Shown here piece by piece: positions 20,501 through 59,500 of a stretch of 64,000 nucleotides of DNA (position 1 is its first letter; each line of letters opens with the position of its first letter). The notes under the pieces were generated by a model that worked only from the letters and a program-made list of their open reading frames with translations, was not told the DNA's origin and ran no database searches. The translations under genes were made by a program, and so were the position numbers. Origin of the DNA: Somniosus microcephalus (lineage: Eukaryota); contig CM126211.1 of the NCBI GenBank assembly GCA_052327205.1, positions 25,854,001 to 25,918,000 of the forward strand. Reading direction: 5' to 3'.

Positions 20501-23500
20501 GGGACAGGAAAGCGCATGTAGATTCAAAATTAATATATTTTTAAGATTTTTCAGCACAACATAAAACATTTGTATTCTAAAAATGATAGTTTGCTAAACA
20601 TATCACAAGTACACGACAGAGCTGGTAAATACCTAAAAGGGAAGATTTAGACAGAAATTAAGTTACCAACTTACCAAAAATATAAAGTAAGTGTACAAGC
20701 ATTTCATTTATGCACAACCAGATCAATAATATTGCTATATTGTTACTAAGCACTCTGGACACAATGCATTCTTAATAAATCACCACCAAATGTTGGCATT
20801 GACATTTTTATAGTACTCAACGTAAAACAATATCCGAGTGTTTTACAAAGGGAAGAGGTGGCTGTTATGTTTAGATTTTTTCTGTTCTAGATTTGTCAGC
20901 TTCTGAATTTGAGAGAACTCAGACAAGTCCTGACTCCCCGGGATTCGTAGAGTCTTTACTAGCCTGATCAAGATACACTAATAGGAACAATCATTCTGTT
21001 TATTTTTAGCTACCAAAATTATCCCATGCCTCATGTCGCACGTTGCTTCGTTAAGTGTTTGAGCATCACAACTTCAGATCTCATTTTAAGTTTAAATCAT
21101 TAATTTATTTTACAAAAGATGAATAACCTATCAATACAATACATATATATTTACAGTAGAAATCCTTCTCTGCTCAAAATGAAAAAAGTTGCAATCTAAC
21201 GCTAAGCTATTCTGTAAATAACACCTTTTTTATACAGTTCTTTTCTTATAATCTTTACCAATTATGGAAGCTAGCTAGTCTATCATGTCTTTGTGAAGAT
21301 TTCAATATGCTCGACGTGGCCTCCACTCAACTCTTCTAACCCATTTTATATCGCTCAAATGGGTGCCGAGGCTTATTTTCATGACTGTCAGCCCCATTGA
21401 AAAATACCAGTCATATCCATAACTGAAGCAATTATGAAGTCGGTGGATTGGCTCCTTTCGGAAATCAGTTACCATAGAAACAACCACAAACCTTGCAACA
21501 TCTAGTAATTCAGGTTAGGGCAAAGCAGGAGGCTTTTCAAACATTTTATGCATTATGACCAAATTTAACAGACAGCTACCAGATAAAACAGCTTCAACTT
21601 GTCAAAGTGGACAGTAAGCAAGAATCAAAGGAATCTGGGAAGGAGAAAAAATAAAGAAGACATGATCAAGGAATTGTTCTTAAATGGAGATTTCTGGTGC
21701 CGGGGCTGGGGGGGGGGGGGGGGGGGGGGCGGGGTGGGGGGGGAAGGGGAGAAGAGAGCGTGGTAAACTGGTTCTGAAAGAGAGCTTGAGAGAGGAGCGA
21801 TGCTGTGGCTGAAAAATTAACTTCCAATGGTGTCCTGGAAAGGGACATGCAGGAATCTGGAGTCAGAGGAACAATGAGTGCGAGTTGGCAAATGGCAGGA
21901 CAAAATTATTCAAAAAGGGTGAACCAAGGCAGTGGGGGAGTTGGTAACAAAAACAAGGAGCCCCTTGAGCTCAGTGAAGACAGGGCCGATGGGTGCTGCA
22001 GAGTTCTTTGAGAGGGCAATACAAAAATGCATTTGATAAAATCCACCCTCGAGGCAAAGGTAGCGAGAATATTACATGCAGTGTCCAATCCAGCACAAAT
22101 TTTAATCATTAGCCTCTGTTCACTGTGTACATCAATGATTTGGATATAGGACAAGAGGGAGCGGTGTCTAAATTTGCAGACTGTACTAAATAGGAGGCAT
22201 AGTAAATAATTCTGTGAAACCCAAATGAAGCTGGAAGGGGATATTGATAATAGAGAAACAACAAAAAAAGGTATATGAATTCAATGTCAATAAATAGGTG
22301 GTACATTTTGGTAAAAAAAATTAAATAATTATATGTTGAATGGTGGGGGTTGGGGGAGGGGAAAGCTGGATAATGTGGAAGAATTAGGAGGTTCTGGTTC
22401 GAAGATATTAAAAGCAGCACCTCAGGTAGATGAGGTCATAAGAATGCTGAAGGAATACTAGGTTTTAGGAACACCGGTATGGATTCACTAGGATGCTGCC
22501 CGCTATGATAAATAAATACAAAGAAAAAATTGGAGCAGTTCTTACTAGAACAGAGGAGATTAAAGGGATGATTTGGTATGAAGGACAGAGCAGATAGAAA
22601 CAGACAGTTTCCAGTAATTGAGGGGTCGAGGGACATAGATACAAGATTAAATGCAAGAGGTTTAGGAGACAGCAGAACGTTTTTCTTTTACACAGATTGA
22701 GGCAGTGGAATTCATGGTTGAAGCAGAGAACATGTCAATATTTAAAAGGAGCTTAGATAGGTAGTTGACAGGGGACTATCAACATATGGGAACATAACAT
22801 AAGAAATAGTAGCAGGAGTAGGCCATTTGGTCCTTCGAGCCTGCTCCGCCATTCCGTAAGATCATGGTTGATCTTCTACCTCACCTCCACTTTCCTGCAC
22901 TATCCCCATATCCTTTGATTCCCTTAATATTAAAAAAAACTATTGAGCTCAGTCTTGAATATACTCAACGACTGAGCTTCTACAGCCCTCTGGGGTAGAG
23001 AATTCCAAAGATTCACCACCGAGTGCAGAAATTTCTGCTCATCTCAGTCCTAAATGGCCGACCCCTTATTCTGAGACTGTGACCCCTGGTTCTAGACTCC
23101 CCAGCCAGGGGAAACATCCTCCCTCCATCTACCCTGTCAAGCCTTCTATGAATTTTGTATGTTTCAATGAGATCACCTCTCATTCTTCTAAACTCTAGAG
23201 AATATAGGCCTAGTCTACTCAATCTCTCCTCATAGGACAATCCCCACATCCCAGGAACCAGTCTGGTGAACCTTCGTTGCACTCCCTCTATGGCAAGTAT
23301 ATCCTTCCTTAGGTAAAGAGACCAAAACTGTACACAATACTCCAGGTGTATATAATTGCAGTAAGATGTCTTTACTCTTATACTCAAATCCTCTTGTAAT
23401 AAAGGCCAACATACCATTTGCTTTCCTAATTGCTTGCTGTACCTGCATATTAACTCAGTGATTCGTGTACAAGGACACTCAGGTCCCTCTGAACACCAGC

Positions 23501-26500
23501 ATTTCCCAATCTCTCATTTAAAAAATACTCTGCTTTTCTATTTTTCTTACCAAAGTGGATAACTTCACATTTCTCCACATTATATTCCATTTGCCATGTT
23601 CTTGCCCACTCACTTAGCCTGTTTATATCCCCTTGAAGCCTCCTTGCATCCTCCTCACAGCTTACATTCCCCCCCAGCTTTGCACTATCAGCAAACTTGG
23701 ATATATTGGCCCAGTAATTTGGGTCCCAACGCGTGAGTAAGCATCGTGTACTCACGCGTGGGCCCGATGGAAGTGCCGGTTTTCAGCATGCACAGCGCAT
23801 GCGCGGAAAACCGGCATTTCCTTTCCTCTGAACCAAGGGGTTCAGAGGTGGAACGCGTGCGCGCAGGAGTCTGCGTGCGCGCGCTGAAATTCTTTTTTTT
23901 TTTTTATATACAGGGTTGCCCGTGCGATAAGGCCTCCAGTTTTTACGCGAGAAAAAAGCAGATGTAAGTACTTAGTTTTAAAAGGTAAGTGATCTATTAA
24001 TTAAAGTTAGAATTTTTTTCCCACAGGTTTATTTTCAAAAATTTGAATAATTGTTTAAATTAGTTTTTTACACTTATTAATAGTTCATTTTATTAGTGTG
24101 ATGTTTTTTTAACTTTTATTTGAAGTTTAAGTACTGTTTTGGGCGCCCGGAGTTTTCATGAGTTTGACAGTTCTTACTATCAAACTCACGAATGAACTTT
24201 TGCAACCTCCGATTGGTTGCCCAGTGCTCACGTGATCCCAGCCAGCTCATCGCACTAACTACGCCGCTAGATCACGCAAGCACAGCGCGCCGGGAGCTGA
24301 ACCAGGCCACTGATAGGAAATCCACGCAGGGCCAAGCTTCAACTGTCGGCGCGCTATGTAAGTGTAGGTCGGGGGCTTGCACCCGCGGGAAGCCCCCCCG
24401 ACACCAATTTCTGGGCCATTGCCTTTGGTCCCCTCATCCAAATCACTGATGTAGATTGTGAATAGCTGTGGCCCAAGTACTGATCCTTGCGGTACCCCAC
24501 TAGTTACAGCCTGCCAACCCAAAAGTGACCAGTTTATTCCTACTCTGTGTTTTCTGTCCGTTAACCAATCCTCAATCCATGCTAGTATATTACCCCCAAT
24601 CCCATGAACCCTAATTTTGTTTAAGAACATAAGATGTAGGAGCAGGAGGTGGTCATATGGCCCCTCGAGCCTGCTCCGCCATTCAATAAGATCATGGCTG
24701 ATCTGATCTTGGCCTCAACTCCACTTCCCTGCCCACTCCCCATAACCTTTGACTCCCTTATCGTTCAAATATCTGTCTATCTCCACCTTAAATATATTCA
24801 ATGACCCAGCCTCCACAGCTCTCTGGGGAAGAGAATTTCAAAGATTCACGACCCTCAGAAGAAATTCCTCATTTCAGTTTTAAATGGGTGCCCCCTTATT
24901 CTGAAATTATGCCCCCTAGTTCTAGATTCCCGACGTCAACCCGCCTCCAATCACTCTTCCCAAGTGTCGGGTCCCCAATTTGCGCATGGACCAGACACCT
25001 AGCAGCGGGAAGAGGATTATAGCCACTTAACTGCCTGTTAACAGGTACTTGATAGTTGTTAACAGGCTCTTTTTCAATTTTGCAGCTTCTGCCTCGGGTT
25101 TCCCGACATCCGGACGCCACGCCAGGTAAGTGTGGCGTGTTGCGAGTCTGCTGTAATGTTTCTGCACTGATGAGAGCTACAGAAGTGGTGTGAAGGATCC
25201 AATGGTACATTGGTGAGTTTCAGAGGTAAGAAAATGTTGGGAAAATCATTTTTAATGCATTTACACTTTTCTGTAGGTAACTAGTTTTGAATCTGATGTC
25301 TAGTCCCATCTCATTGGGAGAACCTCTCTCACCAGTGACAGATCACTTCTGTAACCTCACCTGCAGCTGCCATCTGTTCTAGCCTAAGGAGGGAATCACT
25401 GGAGAGCCTGGGTGCAAGAGCTCAGTTTTGTACGGTGATTGTCAGTGTTTGCAGCACCTCAATGCTGTCAAACACTGAGATATAAGCTGTCAAAAAAAGT
25501 GCGCGCGGTCCCTTTAAGAAAACCGGCAGATGTCGCGTCATCAAATTACTTCATCTGACCGGCTTCCTCTCAATTGGCCGGCAAGCCCGCAGGTCAATCG
25601 ACATAAAATCACGTCCGTGGGCCGGATGCAGTTGGGGGCGGGACTGGAACCTGGAAAACAGCTGACCCGCTCCCAAGCCGCATCCAATGACAAAATCGCG
25701 GCCAAAGTATTTGTTCAATTTCTCTGCCATTTCCTTATTCCCCATTATAATTTCTCCTCTCTAAACCTGTAAGGGACCCACATTTACTTTTGCTAATCTT
25801 TTCCTTTTTACATACCGATAGAAGCTTTTACAGTCTGTTTTTAAGTCTCTCGCTAGTTAACTCTCATATTCTATTTTCCCTTTCATTATCAATTTCTTGG
25901 TCCTCCTTTGCTGAATTCTAAAATCCTCCCAATCCTCAGGCTTGCTACTCTTTTTGGCATTATAAGCCTCTTTCTTTGATCTAATATTATCGTTACCTTC
26001 TCTTGTTAGCCACGGTTGGCCCACTTTTCCTGTGTGGTTTTTTGTGCCTTAATGTATATTTATTGTAAATTATGTATTAATTCTTTAAATGCTAGCCATT
26101 ATCTACCGTCATACCTTTTAATGTAGTTTCCCAATCTACCGTAGCCAACTCGCCCCTCATACCTATATAGTTTGCTTTGTTTAGATTTAAGACCCTAGTT
26201 TCAGATTAAACTAAATTACTTTCAAACACAATATAAAATTCTATCATATTATGGTCACTCTTCCCTACAAGGTTATTAATTAACCCTTTCTCATTGCACA
26301 ATACTAGATCTAAAATAGCCTGTTCCCTAGTTGGTTCCTCAACATACTGATCTTGTCTACATTCCATGAATTCGTCCTCCGCACTATTACTGCAAATTTG
26401 GTTTGCCCAGTCTATATGTAGATTAAAGTCACCCATGATTACTGTATTACCCTTGTTACATGCACCTCTAATTTCCTGATTTATACTCTGCCCTACATTA

Positions 26501-44500: not shown

Positions 44501-47500
44501 CTTTTCAGTAAAGAAATACTGTGCACCTAAATTGGTAATTATAGTATTGGAACATATACTTGCAACACTTCATAACACAGAACAGAAGCAATACAATATT
44601 CCAACCTATTAAAAGCTAAGGCTAAGGGAGTTAATCTTTGACTTAAGACAATTAACTAATCTAAAAATGTCCACACTGTATTGATATGGATAACTAAAGT
44701 AGAGAAAAAGCCAAAGGAAAATAAATTATATTACTTTTAAAATTAAAGATCTACAAACATTGCAACCAACATTGGAACTACAGACCAGTTAGCCCAACAT
44801 CAGTAGTAGTGAAAATGCTGGAACCTTTTTATAGGTTTGGGCAGAGTCAACACGGATTTATGAAAGGGAAATCGTGTTTGACAAATCTGTTAAGAGTTTG
44901 TTGATGTTGTAACTAGCAGAATAGATAAGGGGGAACCAGTGGATGTAGTGTATTTGGTTTTTCAGAAGGCATTCGATAAGGTGCCACACAAGAGGTTATT
45001 AAACAAAATTAGGGCTCCTGGGATTGGGGGTAATATACTAGCAAAGATTGAGGATTGGTTAACGGACAGAAAAAGAGTAGGAATAAACGGGTCATTTTCG
45101 GGTTGGCAGGCTATAACTAGTGGGGTACCGCAAGGATCAGTGCTTGGGCCTCAGCTATTCACAATCTACATCAATGATTTGGATGACATGACCAAATGTA
45201 ATATATCCAAGTTTGTTGATAATACAAAGCTGGGTGGGAGTGTAAGTTGTGAGGAGGATGCAAGGAGGCTTCAAGGGGATATAAACAGGCTAAGTGAGTG
45301 GGTAAGAACATGGCAAATGGAATATAATGTGGAGAAATGTGAAGTTATCCACTTTGGTGAGAAAAAATAGAAAAGCAGAGTATTTTTTAAATGGTGAGAC
45401 ATTGGGAAATGTTGGGTGTCTAGAGAGACCTGGATATCCTTCTACACAAATCACAAAGTTAACATGCGGGTACAGCAAGCAATTAGCAAAGCAAATGGTA
45501 TGTTGGCCTTTATTACAAGAGGATTTGAGTATAAGAGTAAAGATGTCTTACTGCAATTATATAGGGCCCTGGTAAGATCACACCTGGAGTATTGTGTACA
45601 GTTTTGGTCTCCTTATCTAAGGAAGGATATACTTGCCATAGAGGGAGTGCAACAAAGGATCACCAGACTGGTTCCTGGGAGAGGGGGGGATTGTCCTATG
45701 AGGAGAGATTGAGTAGACTAGGCCTATATTCTCTGGAGTGTAGAAGAATGAGAGATGATCTCATTGAAACATACAAAATTCTTACAGGGCTTGACAGGGT
45801 AGATGCAGGGAGGATGTTTCCCCTGGCTGAGGAGTCTAGAACCAGGGGTCACAGTCTCAGAATAAGGGGTCAGCCGTTTAGGACTGAGATGAGGAGAAAT
45901 TTCTTCACTCAGAGGGTGGTGAATCTTTGGAGTTCTCTACCCCAGAGGGCTGTGTAGGCTCAGTCGTCGAGTATATTCAAGACAGAGATCGATAGATTTT
46001 TGAATATTAAGGGAATCAAAGGATAGTGCAGGAAATTGAGGATGAGGTAGAAGATCAGGCATAATCTTGTTGAATGGCAGAGCAGGCTCAAGGGACCAAA
46101 TGGCCTACTCCTGTTCCTATTTCTTATGTTATGATATCTGAGCATGGGAAAAAGGAATGTTACTGAGTTTAGACATTTACCAATCTAATCAGTGTAGCAC
46201 TTGTGCCTCTGGGTCAAAAGCTGTGGATTCAAGCTCCAAGCCAGGAGTTAGGGTTCATAACTTAGACTGACATTCCAATGCAAAACTGAAGGAGTGCTCT
46301 ATTGTCTGAGGTGCTATTCTTTAGGGGAGACATTAAATCGGGGCCTCATCTGCCTATTTCCATGATTCATATGGACATTAAAGATCCCATGGCACTGTTT
46401 AAAAAGGAGCTGGAAATTCTATGTCCTGATAAATATTCTCTACTAGTACCATAAACAAATTAATCGGTTAATTATCGCATTACTGTTTATGGGACCCTTC
46501 CAACAGCTGCTATATTTGCCGAGATAACAATAACTGCACTTCAAAGTAATTCAATGTATATGAAGCACCTTGAGGTGTTGAGACGTGATCAGGAACTACA
46601 TAAACACAAATCTTTCTTTGTAATCTGGATCTGCTTGAAGTTCAAGTCTAGTCAGTTGCTGTGTGAAGCAGTCAAGCCACTTAAAGTGAGATCCCCGCCC
46701 TACAAGTAACTAAAGCCAGCAAACGGTGCCAAGGCTGCGCAGCTGCAGCTCAGTCACCAACGGTAACCATCCAAGGTGGACAAACAACCATGCTGTGTGT
46801 TGACTTCTTCAGACAATAGAGAATATGCAAACCACTTGGCTGAAGCTATTTCTCTGTAGCAAATAAACCTTTAACTAGCAATCTTCTAGAGTTTGTAAAA
46901 GTTCTTTATTTGTTCACCTCAGACTACTTATTTTAAAATTCTCATCCTGGTTTTCAAATTCTCCATGACCTCACCCCCCCACCCTGTAACCTCCTCCAGC
47001 CCTACAAATCTCTGCGCTCCTCCAATTCTAGCTTCTTGCGCATCCCTGATTTTCTACACCCCACCACTGGCAGCTGTGCCTTCAGCTGCCTAAGCCCTGG
47101 AATTCCCTCCCTAAACCCCTCTGCCTCGCTACCTCTCCTCCTTTAAAACCTACCTCTCTGGCCAACCTGTCCTAATATCTCCTTATGTGGCTCGGTGTCA
47201 GATTTTGATTATCGCTCCTGTGAAGTACTTTGGGACGTTTTAGGTTAAAGGCAATATATAAATGCAAGTTGTTGTTAGTTATGATTCAACTTTTTAATTT
47301 GAGAGTACTTTTTAGGCCAGCTAAAATGTGCTATATATTATAGCTACAGTGCATTCTCCAGTAGATTGTATGGTGGAATATAAGACACAATTAATTAAGC
47401 AATTACATACAAATGCAAGATCAAAATGCACAGTTAACGAACTGAAGATTGTACTACAACCATTAGTAGTTTTAAATCATTCAATCATTCAGGGTGACTC

Positions 47501-50500: not shown

Positions 50501-53500
50501 TGCATCTTTTGAGAATTGCCAGCTGTCAGGCAATCTCCTGAACAAATCACCAGAATTGTTTCCACTAGTGTCACCATCTTCAATTTTTATACATTTATAT
50601 TAAACTACTTCCTATAGCTTGAAAAAGCAGCAGTTTCTGCATTTAACAGGTTAATCCCTGATCAAAAACACTCCGCTGAATTGTGGGGGTCAGTGAAATA
50701 TACATCCTCCCCTGCTGAAGTATCTAATGAGACAAACAGGCAGGCATATAATATAAAAGCACCCACATATAATTGAGCTCACTACATTCACAATTTTCTG
50801 GTGCTCTAGGGCACATGCCAGCAACCGTGAAGGGCTGCCAGCTGCCTGTTCTGCACTCCGATTTTCTGCTGCGGCAAGGAGGGGCGGCCGATATACAGAC
50901 CACTCAATTATGGGGCAGCTGCCAAATTTTCATCAAAGTCAGAACATAATTGTTTCAGTTTGCAAGCAGGCTCCCAAACGCCTCTGCTCTACTTGCATGT
51001 GTTTGAGTGCATTGGGCACCTTATAGGGCTTAGACCGTTGCACCCAATTATACAAGGAGCAAGAGATCCATGTGCACATCGAGTGCCTGGCATTGCATGA
51101 TCAAAACTAAAATCTCACTTGCTTAAAAAAAATATGGACCTGTACTTCAGAAGCCATGACCTCAATTAACTGCTGGTGAGTGAAGGAGTTGAAGTCATGT
51201 TCAGGGTCGCTTTTAAACTTAGCTTGCGTTCGATGAAGCCCTTTAGGGTGGCCTCCATTTAATTGTAGAGCCCTTTAAGAAAGGTAATTCCAGAGTTTAA
51301 TTTGGATGCCCATCAAGAACTGAAATTCTTAGTCATGCACACGTGCACAGCAAGGAACATCAAGTGGAAGTCTTGGCCTCCAGATCAAAAGCCTTCCTAT
51401 GGACTGCTGCAACAATCTGGGTTGTATTCAGCTTAGCATACTGGCAACTGTCATAGCAGTTTGTGCTAGAGTAGCACTGATCTGACAGAATCTTCTACGT
51501 AAAGAAACCAGAGTCAGATACAAATATATCCTCACTTAGAAAGTGCCTTGAGAATGTCTTATTTTGGCTTCTGGAAGAATTGATGCATTGATATGAATTG
51601 AGCATTTTCTACACTGGGTTTTATGCACCAATGACCAGATGTTCTGTTACAGGCCATGTAAGCAAGTGGCTCTAAAAACTCAATTTCTGGCTAGATGGAA
51701 TGCTGTATTTATTGGCCCAGAAATTCGGGTCGGAGGCTTCCCGTGGGCTCAAGCCTCTGACCTGCACTTACCTAGCGCGCCGGCCATTGGGCTGTGGGCC
51801 CGCGTGGGATTCCAATCCTGGCCTCCTCCAACTGCCGGCACGCAGTTAGTTCGAAGCGTCCCCTGGGATCACGTGGGCCATGGAGAGCCGATGGCAGTTG
51901 GGAATCTGTATTCATAGATTTGACAGGAAGAGCTGTCAAATCTATGAATACAATTCAGCCCCAAAACATCACTAAAACTTCAAATAACTAAGTTACATAA
52001 AATAACTTTTAAACAATAATGTAAATTTTTGAAAAAATTAATTACAGTTTCTAACGGGGCTAAAAATAAAGTTACTTTTCATTAAAGTATTTAAAAATAA
52101 TAAACTTGTGGAAAAAATGTTTTAATTTAACTTAATTCACCACTTACCTTGTTAAAAGCAGGCCTTGCGACTGCTTTTTACAAGCGTAGCTCCTGGAGAC
52201 TTACCCTCCCGGAGAAACCTGCAAAAAAACTGGAAGTTCCAGGCATACGCGCTGCCTCTCCGGCGCACGCGTTCAACCTGTGAACCCCTTCTTTTAAGGG
52301 AATGGAAGTTCCGGTTTCCCGCGCATGCACGAAACCGGCACTTTCGTTGGGCCTATGCGCGAGTACTCACCCGTGGGGACCCGAATTTCTGGCCCATTAG
52401 TAGTGTCAAAAACACTTTTTCTTGGAGAAATTTGACAAGTCATTGCCAAAAATGAGAGAGAAAGGACTGAAGCCTGGTTCAGAATACAACAGAGTGAGAG
52501 AACATCACTGGACAAAAAGGCAGAAAAGACATGTTATTTTTAAAGAAAAGGAATTTCTGTGTGGTTTGCTTTTCTTCTCTTACTGTACTCCCCCTTGCAA
52601 AATACAAGGCCATGAATCATATTTGATGTGGCATTTGAATAAGATGACAATGTCAATTGGATCACCACATTTAACCAGTTTTGTGTTAAGCAAGGCTAAT
52701 CCATTATGTATATAAAAGACACAAGACCTCCACAGGATTAAAAAAAGAAAAAGACTTGCATTGGATATAGTGCCTTTTATGACCACCGGACGTCTCAAAG
52801 CGCTTTACAGTCAATGAAGTACTTTTGAAGTGGAGTCACTGTTGTAATGTGGGAAACACGGCAGCCAATTTGCACACAGCAAGCTCCCATAAACAGCAAT
52901 ATGATAATGACCAGATAATCTGTTTTTGTTATGTTGGTTGAGGGATAAATATTGGCCAGGACACCGGGGATAACTCCTACTCTTCTTCGAAATAATGCCA
53001 TGGGATCTTTTACGGAAAGCAGACGGGACCTCGGTTTAACGTCTCATTCGAAAGACAGCACCTCCGGCAGTGCAGCACTCCCTCGGCACTGCACTGGAGT
53101 GCCAGCCTAGCTTTATGTGCTCAAGTCTCTGAAGTGGGACTTGAACCCACAACCTTCTGACTCAGAGGCGAGTGTGCTCCCAACTGAGCCACAGCTGACA
53201 CAACAAAGAAGCTGCAAGATGAACATTTTTATGGAGGTTGATTTAAAAAAAAAAACGATTTGACTGTTTTGAACTGCAGCTTCTGACTGGCACAAAGAAA
53301 ATGGATAATTTTGTTTCAAGCAGGTGCATAATTAAATTGACTAGACTACTGATCAAGTTTTGACGAAAGATCATCGACCTGAAACGTTAAACTCTTTCTC
53401 GCTCCACAGATGATGTCTGACCTGCTCAGCGTTTCCAGCATTTTCTATTGTTATTTCAGATTTCCAGCATCTACAGCATTTTGCTTTTGTTAGATTATGT

Positions 53501-56500
53501 TTACTAACACTTCAGTACATTTCTCAGTTATTCATTTTACTGGCTGATACTTTAAGACATACATTACTGGCTTGTGGTGATTATTCTTTATGTTTAGTAA
53601 GAAGTATTGTGATTGGTTGTTTGTTTCCTGCCTTGGGATATATGCTGTAATCTCATTGGTAGTTGATGTCATGTGATTTGTGGTGGCCATCTTAAATTCA
53701 GTTCTTTCCAGCCTTTAGTTGGGACTGGGTGTTGAAGATGTGCTACAGGCTTTTTAAGTTAATAAAGCCTAGATTAGAAAGGCAAATCTATTCTTTATTT
53801 CAATTTATTAACTTTGTGTCAGAATGGAGCGATATCTTCAACCAGAACGATTCAATGCTGACCCTAATTCTGCAGGAGTGGATGATAAATGGAAACACTG
53901 GTATTGTACATTTAAAAACTTTTTGGGCGTGTTGGATCAAGAGTCTCTAAATAAGCTGAATATGCTGATCAACTACATTGCTCCGGATGTGTATAAGTAT
54001 ATTTTGGACTGTAAAACTTACGAAGTGGCTATTTCTACATTGGAAAAGATTTTTGTTAAACCAAAGAATGAGGTATTTCCACGTCACCTTCTATCTGCCC
54101 ATAGGCAGCAGGTGGGAGAATCTTTGGATACTTATTTACAAGCACTTCGGTGCCTTAGTGTTAACTAATTATAAGGCCGTGACGGCTGAAGAATGTAAGG
54201 AAGAATCGGTACGGGATGCTTTTATTAATGGATTACTGTCTAGATCAATTCGTCAGCGGTTGTTAGAAAATAAGACTTTGGATCTTAAGAGTGCTTTTGA
54301 GCAAGCTTCTACATTGGATGTGGCTCAGAGAAGTTCGGATTCTTATGCTCTTTTTAATCGGCCTGTGACTGTGGTTTCGGCAGTTCCGGATGAAAAGGAA
54401 TTATGTGGACTTAATAGGAGTGGTTTACTAGATTCTGAAACAGTTTCTACTTCAGCGGCTGTTGCCTCTAGGATTCAGAAGTGTTATTTTTGTGGGAACG
54501 TCCGGCACCCTCGTCTGAAGTGTCCTGCTCGGGAGGCTGTGTGTAGTAAATGCGGCGAGAGAGGTCATTACACACGTGTGTGTAAATCATCAGGTTCAAT
54601 TACCTCCTCTGTGACTATTCAGCCTTTAGACAGGGCGTTTATTGCATCAATTTCTGCTGCATTTGCTCATGGCCTAAACAAAGCTATAGTTACGGCCCAA
54701 GTTAATGGGTTGGAAGTGAAGGCCCTTATAGATACGGGCAGTACCGAGAGTTTTATAAGTCTTCAGTTGGCAAAGGAGAAGCATTTGAAAATTTCACCTG
54801 TTTCCTATCAGGTGTGTATGGCTCAGACGACTCTCACTTCACAAGTAGCTGGTTGTTGCCTTGTGAAATTGATTCTTCTAGGTAATACGTATACTGATAT
54901 ACGCCTATCTGTTTTGCCTAATCTCTGTGCGGATATTTTGATTGGTCATGATGTGCTTCAGTTACAAGAGTCTCTCAATCTTTCATTTGGAGGGACTAAG
55001 CCACCTTTATCTATTTGTGGATTAACCTCTATCCATTTCTCCATTATCACTTTTTTCCAATTTGATGCCGGATTGTAAGCCAATTGCTACCAAGTCAAGA
55101 AGGTATAGCAGTCAGGATAGAGAATTTATTAATTCTGAAGTTCAATGTCTCTTATTGGAAGGAATCATTGAACCTAGTTGTTCGCCTTGGCGGGCACAGG
55201 TAGTTGTCACGACTAACGAGAGACATAAGAAACGAATGGTGATAGACTATTCCCAAACTATTAATAGGTATACTCAATTAGATGCGTACCCTTTGCCTAA
55301 GATTGATGAGCTTATCAATAAAGTATCTCAGTATAAGGTTTTTAGCACTATTGACCTAAAGAGTGCTTATCATCAGATTCCTATTGTTAAGAAGGATCAA
55401 CCATATACGGCCTTTGAGGCTGGTGGAAAGCTGTATCAGTTTTGCCGAATACCATTTGGTGTTACTAATGGTGTTGCTTGTTTTCAACGGGCAATGGATG
55501 CTTTTATAAGTGATAACTCCCTCTCTGACACCTTTTCATACTTAGATGACATCACGGTGTGTGGCAAATCAAGGGTGGAGCATGATTCTAATTTAGAAAG
55601 ATTCCTTCAAGCTGCGGAAAAAGTTGGTTTAACTTTCAATAAAGAGAAGTGTACCTTTTCGACCACTGAGGTAAATCTACTGGGGTACATTATCTCGGGA
55701 AACAAGATTAAACCAGACCCAGAACGTCTGCGACCATTGATTGATTTACCTTGTCCTACTAATTCTAAGGCTTTGCAACAAGTTGTTGGACTGTTTTCTT
55801 ACTATTCTAATTGGATTGCAAATTTCTCACAGAAGATCCGGCCTCTTATTCGGGTTACGACATATCCTCTATCATGGGAGGCCAGGACGTGTTTTGATAA
55901 TTTTAAAAAGGATATCCTTGGAGCAGTTGTGCATTCTATTGATGAGCAGGTTCCTTTTGTGATTGAGACGGACGCTTCTGATTTTGCAATTGGGGCTACT
56001 CTGAACCAAAATGGAAGACCTGTGGCCTTTTTCTCACGTACCTTGAACAATAGTGAAAAAAGGCATTCTTCAATAGAGAAAGAGGCGTATGCAATAGTAG
56101 AAGCACTGCGTAAATGGAGACATTATTTATCGGGGCGACATTTTACGTTGGTAACTGATCAAAAGTCTGTGTCCTTTATGTTTGATGTCAAACATTTTGG
56201 AAAGATTAAGAATGATAAAATAATGAGGTGGAGGATTGAGTTGGCATGTTACCATTTTGATATAGTTTATCGTCCGGGGAAGGATAATGTTGCTGCTGAT
56301 GCGCTGTCGAGGGCTTATTGTTCTGTGATTCACGGAGATACGCTTATTAATCTTCACAATGCCTTATGCCATCCTGGGGTTACGAGGATGATACACTTCG
56401 TACGCAGTAAGAATTTGCCCTTTTCAGTTGAAGACGTCAAGCGGATGACTTCATCATGTTCTATCTGTGCTCGGTGTAAACCGAGTTTCTTTAAGCCTCA

Positions 56501-59500
56501 ACGAGCTCATCTTATAAAGGCTACTTCTCCTTTTGAACGTTTGAGCGTCGATTTCAAGGGGCCTCTTCCTTCAACTACTCAAAACTGATATATATTTACT
56601 GTTGTGGATGAGTTTTCAAGGTTCCCTTTTGCTTTTCCTTGCGCAGATGTATCAGCTGCTACAGTTATCAAATGTCTGACTCAACTTTTTGTCATCTTTG
56701 GGATGCCTGCGTATATCCATTCGGATCAGGGAAGTTCTTTTATGTCTTCCCAGTTGAAGGAATACCTTCAGAGTCGGGGAATTTCTACTAGCAGACTACC
56801 CCGTATAATCCCCAGGGTAATGGACAGTGCGAACGATACAATGGGGTGATCTGGAAGGCAGTTATGTTGGCTTTGACATCCTGGAACCTTAAGAATACAC
56901 AGTGGGAAATGGTACTGCCTGATGCCCTGCATTCCATTAGATCATTGCTTTCAACGGCTACTAATGTGACCCCCCATGAAAGGCTCTTTAACTATCCGCG
57001 GAGATCTACTACGGGATATTCGGTACCTTCATGGCTTACTATGCAGGGACCTGTGCTGCTTCGACGCCATGTTAGATTGTCAAAATATGATCCTTTAGTG
57101 GAGGAGGTGGAGCTGTTGGAGGCAAATTCCCAATATGCTCATAATCGATTCCAAGATGGGAAAGAAAGTACCGTTTCAACTAAAGACTTGGCTCCTTGTG
57201 GTGGCCAGCCCTCTTCTGAGGATATTAACAATAGTCATGATTCAGATAATGTGGATGCTGTTACAGATACTACGAATATTTCCAATCCGACTGCAGATAA
57301 TTATACTTCTATTAGTCAGCCTTCGATGGATGTTCATGACCGTCCCAGTTTACCTCCTGATGGGATTTCTAATCCGGAAACCGTTGAAATTCGGGATATG
57401 GATAGCCTTCCTGCAGAAGATACTTCTGTGTCTCCTGGTGTGGGAGGGCAAGGAATTTCACCAAGGTTAAGAAGGTCGACACGAACAAGATATTCGGTCG
57501 ACCGATTGAAAATGGACTTTTAAATTGATAGTAATGTTTTAAAATTGTTGAAATATTATATTATATTGTTTTAGTTGAGAGATACTTAATACTTATGTAC
57601 AATGTTACTATTTGTTGTTGCTCACTTAGTATTGTGTCATGTTGAATAGTTTTATTTTGTCTGTGCATAGTTTTAGTTGTAAATAATTAATTATAAATTG
57701 TAAAGGTTATTTAGGTTGGAGTATATTTTAAAAGGAGGGGTGAATGTGGTGATTATTCTTTATGTTTAGTAAGAAGTATTGTGATTGGTTGTTTGTTTCC
57801 TGCCTTGGGATATATGCTGTAATCTCATTGGTAGTTGATGTCATGTGATTTGTGGTGGCCATCTTAAATTCAGTTCTTCCAGCCTTTAGTTGGGACTGGG
57901 TGTTGAAGATGTGCTACAGGATTTTTAAGTTAATAAAGCCTAGATTAGAAAGGCAAATCTATTCTTTATCTCATGGCTCAATACGAAACAATGGCACATT
58001 GTAAACCCACCCTCCAGGGACTCTGTCTGGTCGCCCACTGCTGACACAACTGGCTCCATAGCCTGTGCAGTCTCCACACACAGTGCAGACCATGCACTGG
58101 TCCAGCTTCCATTTGTGCATTCCAGGGGAGCACATTATGGATTTCTCATCCTTTTCATCCAGCTCCTCTTCCAAATCCTCATCCATTGCTGTTGCCATGT
58201 TTTCCACATTGTAACCTACTTAAAAAAACAAACATGGGTCACTTCATTCACAATATTTCTGCCTAAATTAGTCTTACCATTTATTTAACATCCAATTAAA
58301 ACTGGCCAAGAATAAGACTGTTCACGCCATTAAATGATTGTACAGAATGATTACGTTGAAGTGCCTTTGGATTTTTCCTATTTGTCAAGGTGTGAAATAT
58401 CCAAGGATGTCATCTCATCCCCCAGCATCATCTTCTAGTGAGTCAGCCATCAATAGGTCACTCACCTTGCAAAACTACAATGCTGGGAGACAAGCGCAAG
58501 GCACTGCTCCTAAATGTCATAGCACTGGATATTTGAGGGTCTCAATCACCATGCCAAGTATTAAAGGATGTGGAAATGTGCTCTAACCATTCCAGCACAA
58601 CATCCAATGGGGGAAGAGGCTATTTTTTGTTGCTATTTTCATATTTGACACAACATGGTAAGTGTAACAAGTCTGACTGAGCTCAAAGTATTAGTGCTCA
58701 TCAAAAAAGTTCAGTGAAGCACTAATTGGTTGTCTCAGTCAGAATAGCCATATGGAGAGCTGGTATGGAAAACTGAAATGTTCTGACTCAGAGATTTTCC
58801 CTTCATTTAACTTGCTGGATATTAAAGCTAATGCTGGCTGCAAACATGCTCCAATCGTCAGCATTGACCTTTCTCACCTTATGGAAGAAACACCTACACC
58901 AGTACTTTAAGTTTTAAGTACTTTTGGACAAAGATACATGCTTTTAAAAAAAAAAAAGTACCTGCTACCTTGGAGGAAAGAATTTCAATTTAGAGGGACA
59001 CTGTCTTGTACCACTGACCATTTTCACCTGCACTCAAAGCCGTTCAATGATAACATCCAAGTAGCTTCATACCAGTCTAGGTCCAATCTGGAGGCAACTA
59101 AGTTATAAAACAAATTCGTAATGCCCGCGTATGCAGCATCCATGCCTGAATTAACTTTTCCCATCTTTGGTACCTGTATCCAGGCCAATCCAAAGCACCA
59201 TCGTCCATGAAAACCAATAGTGCTGCCCTGGCACATATCAGTTACCTCCATACTCTTAATTCATTGGTAAGACTACAGGTGCAAATGGAGACTAGAGTGG
59301 ATCTCCATGGCAGGATGCTGACAAAAATCAAAATTCTCTCCTGCTTTAAAAATAATACAACACTTTTACAAAGGTCTCTACCCAAAACATTAACCTTTTC
59401 TCTTTTCAGATGCTGACAGATCTTTGTATTTTCGATTTATAAATCACTTACAATACAAAATACTTTTTACAAGGTAGCAGACTTTACAAAGTTCCTGGCA

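Follow-up and report, generated by a model that had tools for sequence, protein, structure and literature searches.

A self-complementary putative primer site in a family of Gypsy retrotransposons without a chromodomain, from a copy in Somniosus microcephalus

Results

Structure of the element

The sequence analysed here, referred to as the window, is a 64,000 nucleotide stretch of the Somniosus microcephalus genome (contig CM126211.1, positions 25,854,001 to 25,918,000). It contains a Gypsy LTR retrotransposon of 4.4 kb, with LTRs at 53573–53802 and 57745–57973 and a target duplication of 5 bp. The limits of the LTRs were set from the direct repeat, the TG..CA ends, the duplicated TGGCT, the polypurine tract and loose ends of RNA reads at 53573 and 53802, the last of which confirm both limits of the 5′ LTR. 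The domains are in the order gag, protease, reverse transcriptase (RT), RNase H, integrase. TG..CA LTRs, a target duplication, a polypurine tract and protease–RT–RNase H–integrase order together identify a Ty3/Gypsy LTR retrotransposon. The features are as follows.

53568–53572, +: left target-site duplication TGGCT, same letters as 57974–57978
53573–53802, +: 5′ LTR, 230 bp, TG..CA; 98.7% identical direct repeat of 57745–57973, with loose read ends at both limits
53756–53766, +: predicted self-primer (LTR arm); exact complement of 53804–53814, covarying across families; putative primer
53767–53783, +: conserved hairpin GCCT/AGGC, beginning at the base that follows the predicted cut, 53766|53767; a corresponding stem occurs in 17 of 24 families, against 3.9 expected
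53803, +: one-base spacer from LTR end to primer site; the same offset in five of eight loci with a perfect target duplication, window included
53804–53814, +: predicted primer-binding site, from its sequence complementarity to the element's own LTR; no TGG
53787–53828, +: possible extra helix in this copy, 53787–53794 with 53821–53828 (U5 with AUG region); own versus cross-family test, P = 0.26
53824–54165, +: N-terminal part of gag, frame broken near 54165; 1,286 relatives at E ≤ 0.001
54170–55075, +: C-terminal part of gag and aspartic protease; two zinc knuckles at 54482–54583; frame changes before RT
55026–56585, +: RT, RNase H and integrase zinc domain (Pfam RVT_1, RT_RNaseH, Integrase_H2C2); in-frame stop at end
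56589–57520, +: integrase core and C-terminal part, in two frames with a break near 56800; SH3-like C-terminal domain, no chromodomain
57730–57744, +: polypurine tract; sequence matches loose read ends before 53573
57745–57973, +: 3′ LTR, 229 bp, direct repeat of the 5′ LTR
57974–57978, +: right target-site duplication TGGCT, identical to the left copy

This copy is dead, since its reading frame is broken at four places (near 54165, near 55050, at 56586 and near 56800). No tRNA gene was found in the 64-kb window, Rfam gave no match across 53500–54100, and comparison of the Gag profile with solved structures gave no convincing match. Assignment to Troyka or the Kuafuorterviruses was considered and rejected: duplications in those groups measure 3 bp and their motifs are non-YXDD, where the present element has 5 bp and YLDD. 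A high-copy short repeat lies just upstream of the element (53360–53490), and LINE fragments that we take to be CR1-like are present in the flanks (23013–24714 and 44894–45370).

A self-complement adjacent to the 5′ LTR

The original prediction, made from the window sequence alone, was that a self-complementary 11-mer stands in place of a tRNA primer-binding site. The 11-mer TTTATTAACTT (53804–53814) is indeed the exact reverse complement of AAGTTAATAAA (53756–53766) within the LTR. As also described there, it starts one base past the terminal CA of the LTR (53802) and contains no TGG, and the gag ATG lies at 53824, 21 nt beyond the LTR. The final six bases of the LTR arm are AATAAA. The polarity suits a minus-strand primer: the 3′ base of the arm, 53766, pairs with 53804, and extension from it would enter U5. 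When the LTR was dinucleotide-shuffled 20,000 times, a complement of at least 11 nt arose in 10 cases; in the window it occurred at 38 of 21,247 background positions.

A second hairpin in the loop (AATAAAG/CTTTATT) had also been proposed. Its AATAAAG arm (53761–53767) overlaps the 11-mer, so that it is incompatible with the main helix, and it also loses its last pair in the 3′ LTR. The inner stem that is kept in relatives is a different one, formed by GCCT at 53767–53770 with AGGC at 53780–53783. Another hairpin, AGGCTTT/AAAGCCT, appeared in some folds of the 5′ LTR; it was rejected, as it needs a base, at 53750, that the 3′ LTR and most reads do not share. When 53756–53830 of the window copy was folded alone it was no stabler than shuffled sequences (z = −0.15). 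A single copy therefore proves little, and the evidence comes from the family.

Covariation across the family

A search with the RT region retrieved 1,258 long proteins at E ≤ 1e-50, of which the best 120 are mostly single reading frames of about 1,200 amino acids, 59–70% identical. Their named hosts include Trichuris, Armadillidium, Periplaneta, Narcine, Hypanus, Actinostola and Mytilus, the named vertebrates among them being rays only; Pocillopora, Acropora, Montipora and Penaeus are further named hosts of related proteins. By gag alignment, 80 of 127 confirmed metagenome loci were retrieved, together with three genome loci. Seven loci without a gag start and seven with less than 120 nt upstream were left out, and the remaining 69, with the window, fell into 28 families at 80% nucleotide identity. 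No relative turned up when viral contigs were scanned four times.

Two tallies were made. The first was by motif only, with CA plus one base upstream of gag as the anchor and no choice of the best member. A complement of at least 11 nt was found in 37 of the 69 loci and in 17 of 27 families (first member of each), against 0/69 loci and 0/27 families in the gag control. The second tally was based on 24 anchored families out of the 28, those in which the best inverted repeat begins at CA plus one base. Each was represented by its best-pairing member for the position counts, permutation test, second stem, RNAalifold and covariation score, and this choice inflates the pairing figures that follow.

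Among the anchored families, helix positions 1–11 comprise 260 Watson–Crick pairs, one G–U pair and three mismatches out of 264. Pairing continues at positions 12–15 (73/96 Watson–Crick) and falls away at positions 16–20 (28/120); as it reaches position 15, the primer length is not fixed at 11. The 24 families contain 21 distinct 11-mers. When the two arms were compared over positions 5–13, pairing was 8.5/9 within the same family and 4.5/9 with other families, and none of 100,000 permutations reached the former value. RNAalifold, run on 22 of the 24 families (two with long loops were omitted), predicted 13 pairs, 12 of them with changes on both sides. The covariation score was 0.645, against 0.150 after shuffling and at most 0.123 after sliding. 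The two 11-mers therefore change together in a compensatory manner, and the relatives retain the complementarity seen in the window copy.

A TGG at the primer site is present in none of the 24 anchored families, which goes against an intact tRNA site, and in all five tRNA-primed Gypsy controls, which were taken from genome G003 and have self-complements of at most 6 nt. The ends of the LTR are fixed independently, by a perfect target duplication and a direct repeat, in 8 of 20 repeat-bearing loci (four families, window included). Five of these eight have a complement of 11–14 nt at an offset of one base; the other three have less than 11 nt at that offset, and each has a better-pairing sister copy.

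From the way the loci are scattered among named proteins in the tree, the pairing appears to be spread across phyla. The self-complementary primer site is a trait of the whole clade.

There are some exceptions. The three mismatches in positions 1–11 (in L030, L062 and L067) are all an A opposite C at position 10, which is G–C in 19 of 24 families; they represent either decay at the same site or a tolerated wobble. Of the unanchored families, L055 has lost its 5′ LTR end by deletion and retains the arm and hairpin in its 3′ LTR, L056 and L065 look decayed, and L045 (region 575–775) has no self-complement upstream and is unexplained. Locus L021 (1–119) is without a self-complement and departs from the TAAA|GCC layout, and may be a chimera or a variant. 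In L053 (130–253) the LTR end and primer site are tandemly duplicated upstream of gag.

Architecture around the helix

In most families the LTR arm has TAAA at its 3′ end, followed by RCC. A second stem of at least 4 bp, beginning at the first loop base and hence at the predicted cut, is present in 17 of the 24 families, compared with 3.9 expected. In 15 of the 24 the last six bases of the arm are AATAAA or ATTAAA. Six families have neither hexamer in the arm end or the loop and still pair over 9–17 bp, and in two, L009 and L064, the hexamer sits in the loop, outside the helix. The start of gag lies 15–46 nt from the primer site in most families.

We also looked for the additional duplexes known from Tf1. 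A U5-end duplex of the Tf1 type was not above shuffles across the families. A leader duplex was slightly above shuffles (P = 0.006) and not above the leaders of other families (P = 0.26). A family-wide pretzel of three duplexes was accordingly rejected; the window copy alone can form one 8-bp flanking duplex. Upstream of the cut, the base at −11 is A in 17/24 families, and AGY is found there in 14/24, which hints at a transcript start. A strict initiator consensus at −11 was not enriched, and a TATA box was found in one of the 24 families.

RNA reads over the LTR

Two RNA runs (X18 and X19) and two sets of contigs were aligned to 53453–54352; the reads derive from many copies and from both strands. 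Among the loose read ends listed, none from this mixture of copies and strands marked a transcript start at or near 53756, and none listed from the two runs over 53453–54352 was a poly(A) end. Read depth over 53573–53812 was mostly in one orientation in X18 and in the opposite orientation in X19, and reads passed from the LTR end into varied flanks. This pattern suggests read-through and antisense transcription of many copies.

The reads also report on variants near the helix. The commonest variant at 53755 is carried by 288 of 553 reads in X19, and G is missing from 53816 in 212/224 reads in X19 and 43/45 in X18. A copy that carried the commonest variant at 53755 together with the one at 53816 would pair over 13 bp.

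Placement of the element

The original prediction held that the element has two zinc knuckles and no chromodomain, and both points were borne out. The two knuckles are present in 104 of the 120 closest relatives. A chromodomain or Tf2-type SH3 domain was found in 0/16 full-length relatives that were scanned, and in 0/120 according to precomputed domains. In a search for chromovirus sequences to compare with, a scan for chromodomain homologues was empty, and Tf2-SH3 or RT-RNase H profiles run over about 1,000 genomes added nothing. The integrase's C-terminal region resembles the SH3-like domain of retroviral integrases. Some chromoviruses have lost their chromodomain.

The Gag with its double zinc knuckle aligns end to end with that of L109, an element that we take to be of Mag type, as we do L106; the Gmr1-type labels of other control sequences are likewise our own assignment. 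The RT does not group with Mag. In a quick tree, rooted at the midpoint and composed of 39 family, five Gmr1-type and three Mag-type sequences with no chromovirus among them (two loci had too little RT), the family lies apart from the eight others on a long branch with 100% SH-aLRT support, and the three Mag-type sequences join the five of Gmr1 type. Scored against Ty3, the RT-RNase H of the clade reached 209 bits, where a Gmr1-type element, a non-chromovirus, reached 337 and a Mag-type element 181; a long branch could mimic such a distance from Ty3. Ty3 is described, in the part of the source available, as a relative of the sushi chromoviruses (PMC3601003). The non-chromoviral status that had been proposed thus has indirect support from the missing chromodomain, the Mag-type Gag and the Ty3 score, the tree itself being one without Tf1/sushi sequences.

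Within the family, the window RT (55101–56330) is 68–70% identical to P0003 and P0004, 67% to an isopod element and 62% to two ray elements. The closer match to the isopod than to the rays may reflect horizontal transfer or old paralogy, on weak tree support. Three genome entries listed as prokaryotic (G001–G003; loci L081, L082 and L083) contain animal-type retrotransposons, which points to host contamination. One of them, G003, has 13 RT-RNase H matches and two chromodomains; these lie in integrase genes with no RT nearby, which are presumably Polinton-like.

Discussion

A model for priming

Elements of this family probably begin reverse transcription by self-priming in the manner of Tf1, without a tRNA, and this reading of the original prediction is well supported by the compensatory change seen throughout the family. 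In the portions of the Tf1 literature available, the transcript's first 11 bases pair with the primer site and the RNase H cut falls between bases 11 and 12 (PMC7175516), the primer is copied into the end of the cDNA (PMC11042837), and two further duplexes flank the primer site in the folded RNA (PMC10085805).

From the sequence evidence we infer a transcript start, a cleavage, a priming step and a copying of the primer as follows. The transcript would begin 11–15 nt upstream of the TAAA|GCC junction, and its 5′ end would fold back to pair with the primer site. By analogy with Tf1, a cut at TAAA|GCC by the element's own RNase H would free a 3′ end, which would then be elongated into U5; the conserved hairpin at the junction probably assists in placing this cut. 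Plus-strand synthesis would copy the primer back into the primer site in every cycle, which would explain why the pairs are nearly all Watson–Crick and why the two arms change together. A poly(A) signal within the arm or close beyond it, acting in the 3′ LTR, would leave a short downstream repeat for the first strand transfer.

Alternative explanations

Three other accounts of the complementarity have to be set against self-priming by the transcript's own 5′ end. The element might be self-templated by another route, with a separate short RNA as primer or with the 3′ region of the transcript, whose 3′ LTR copy of R contains the arm. A full transcript would carry the arm at either end, the pairing reaches about 15 nt, and the RNA reads gave no mapped start site, all of which would accommodate such a route. 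It would nevertheless require the same precise cut at TAAA|GCC and would destroy the repeat needed for strand transfer, and intramolecular pairing is predicted with a probability of 0.56–0.98 for an RNA starting at −11; we consider it unlikely. The original prediction offered a different possibility, that the helix serves to mask the poly(A) signal in the 5′ LTR, in which case something else would act as primer. Because the partner of the arm lies outside the LTR, only the 5′ end can form the helix, and the arm ends in a poly(A) hexamer in the 15 families noted above. As a sole purpose this is unsupported, the signal being absent from the arm end and loop of 6/24 families that pair all the same, and lying beyond the reach of the helix in L009 and L064. 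Nor does masking predict a fixed start one base past the LTR, the near absence of G–U pairs, or the loss of TGG in all 24 families. It is quite improbable as the explanation of the helix, and can be a side benefit of self-priming.

The third account is a decayed tRNA site with a chance complement in AT-rich DNA. The 11-mer is AT-rich, complements of its length occur at the background rate given above, and 53814–53824 resembles a tRNA-Leu site as given in the original prediction. This look-alike was rejected: its distance from the LTR is 11 nt too great, and its G at 53816 is missing from most reads. A decayed site leaves the family-wide covariation and the lack of TGG in 24 families unaccounted for; the covariation refutes it, unless 21 tRNA ends each happen to match the LTR of their own family, and we regard it as extremely improbable.

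Comparison with known systems

Tf1, Tf2, Tj1 and the Tf1/sushi group, as far as the available parts of the reports describe them, have a primer site beside the 5′ LTR that complements a stretch of about 11 nt in the LTR, no tRNA site, and Gypsy domain order (PMC7175516, PMC10085805, PMC4600332), as does the present clade. Here, as there, the site begins 0–5 nt after the LTR. The clade differs in having neither a chromodomain nor a Tf2-type SH3 domain, in the two zinc knuckles of most of its members, and in having a local hairpin at the predicted cut and no family-wide pretzel. Its poly(A) signal is often within the primer, and the short distance from primer site to gag start in most families is a further difference. 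We predict with considerable confidence that the element works like Tf1, yet it lacks two of the features by which Tf1/sushi membership is judged, the chromodomain and the three-duplex pretzel.

Self-primers have also been predicted for the plant Ty1/Copia TAR lineage (Houba, Osr-1) and for Tcn1 chromoviruses, on the basis, in the part of the report available, of a complement of at least 10 nt starting 0–5 nt after the LTR (PMC6317226). The present element has such a complement; TAR and Tcn1 belong to another superfamily or clade, with plant hosts. The TAR lineage suggests that self-priming has arisen outside the chromoviruses before. Mag-type elements share with the clade the double-zinc-knuckle Gag layout, a mostly single reading frame and the absence of a chromodomain. 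They differ in that L106 carries a tRNA site with TGG (L109 yielded no LTR), in an RT that is only 25–34% identical, and in being separated from the clade by the fully supported long branch. The lack of TGG within 5 nt of the LTR in any of the 24 families likewise distinguishes the clade from the tRNA-primed Mag and Gmr1 clades.

An independent origin of self-priming is indirectly supported by these comparisons, with a tree that lacks chromovirus sequences. It is quite possible, though we would not call it probable, that self-priming arose separately in a large non-chromoviral Gypsy clade of cnidarians, molluscs, arthropods, nematodes and cartilaginous fishes, that the clade has its own architecture (a poly(A) signal in the 3′ end of the primer, a hairpin stacked at the cut where Tf1 has its pretzel, and a primer site rewritten from the primer in every cycle), and that none of this has been described. 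Two surveys of mollusc and annelid Gypsy elements contain no priming terms in the portions available (PMC6238403, PMC8556966), and a third contains general mentions only in its available portion (PMC8220671). The literature that could be searched, which is partial and leaves most subscription journals and Repbase outside, describes self-priming for Tf1/sushi, Tcn1 and plant Copia TAR and gives no account of this clade. The chief candidate for an earlier description is a Repbase group named Smaug, reportedly self-primed, non-chromoviral Gypsy elements of animals and possibly the same clade; if so, the basic fact is already on record.

Implications

To our knowledge, self-priming has been demonstrated in Tf1 only, and has been taken as characteristic of the Tf1/sushi group. 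Annotation software that searches for a tRNA site would record elements such as this one as having no primer site. The family provides at least 21 natural primer sequences from which the rules of RNase H cutting could be derived. Self-primed elements would presumably also escape control by tRNA fragments. A second widespread clade of animal Gypsy elements that prime themselves, in which the RNA folds differently, is relevant to the question whether priming without a tRNA is ancestral or has been invented repeatedly.
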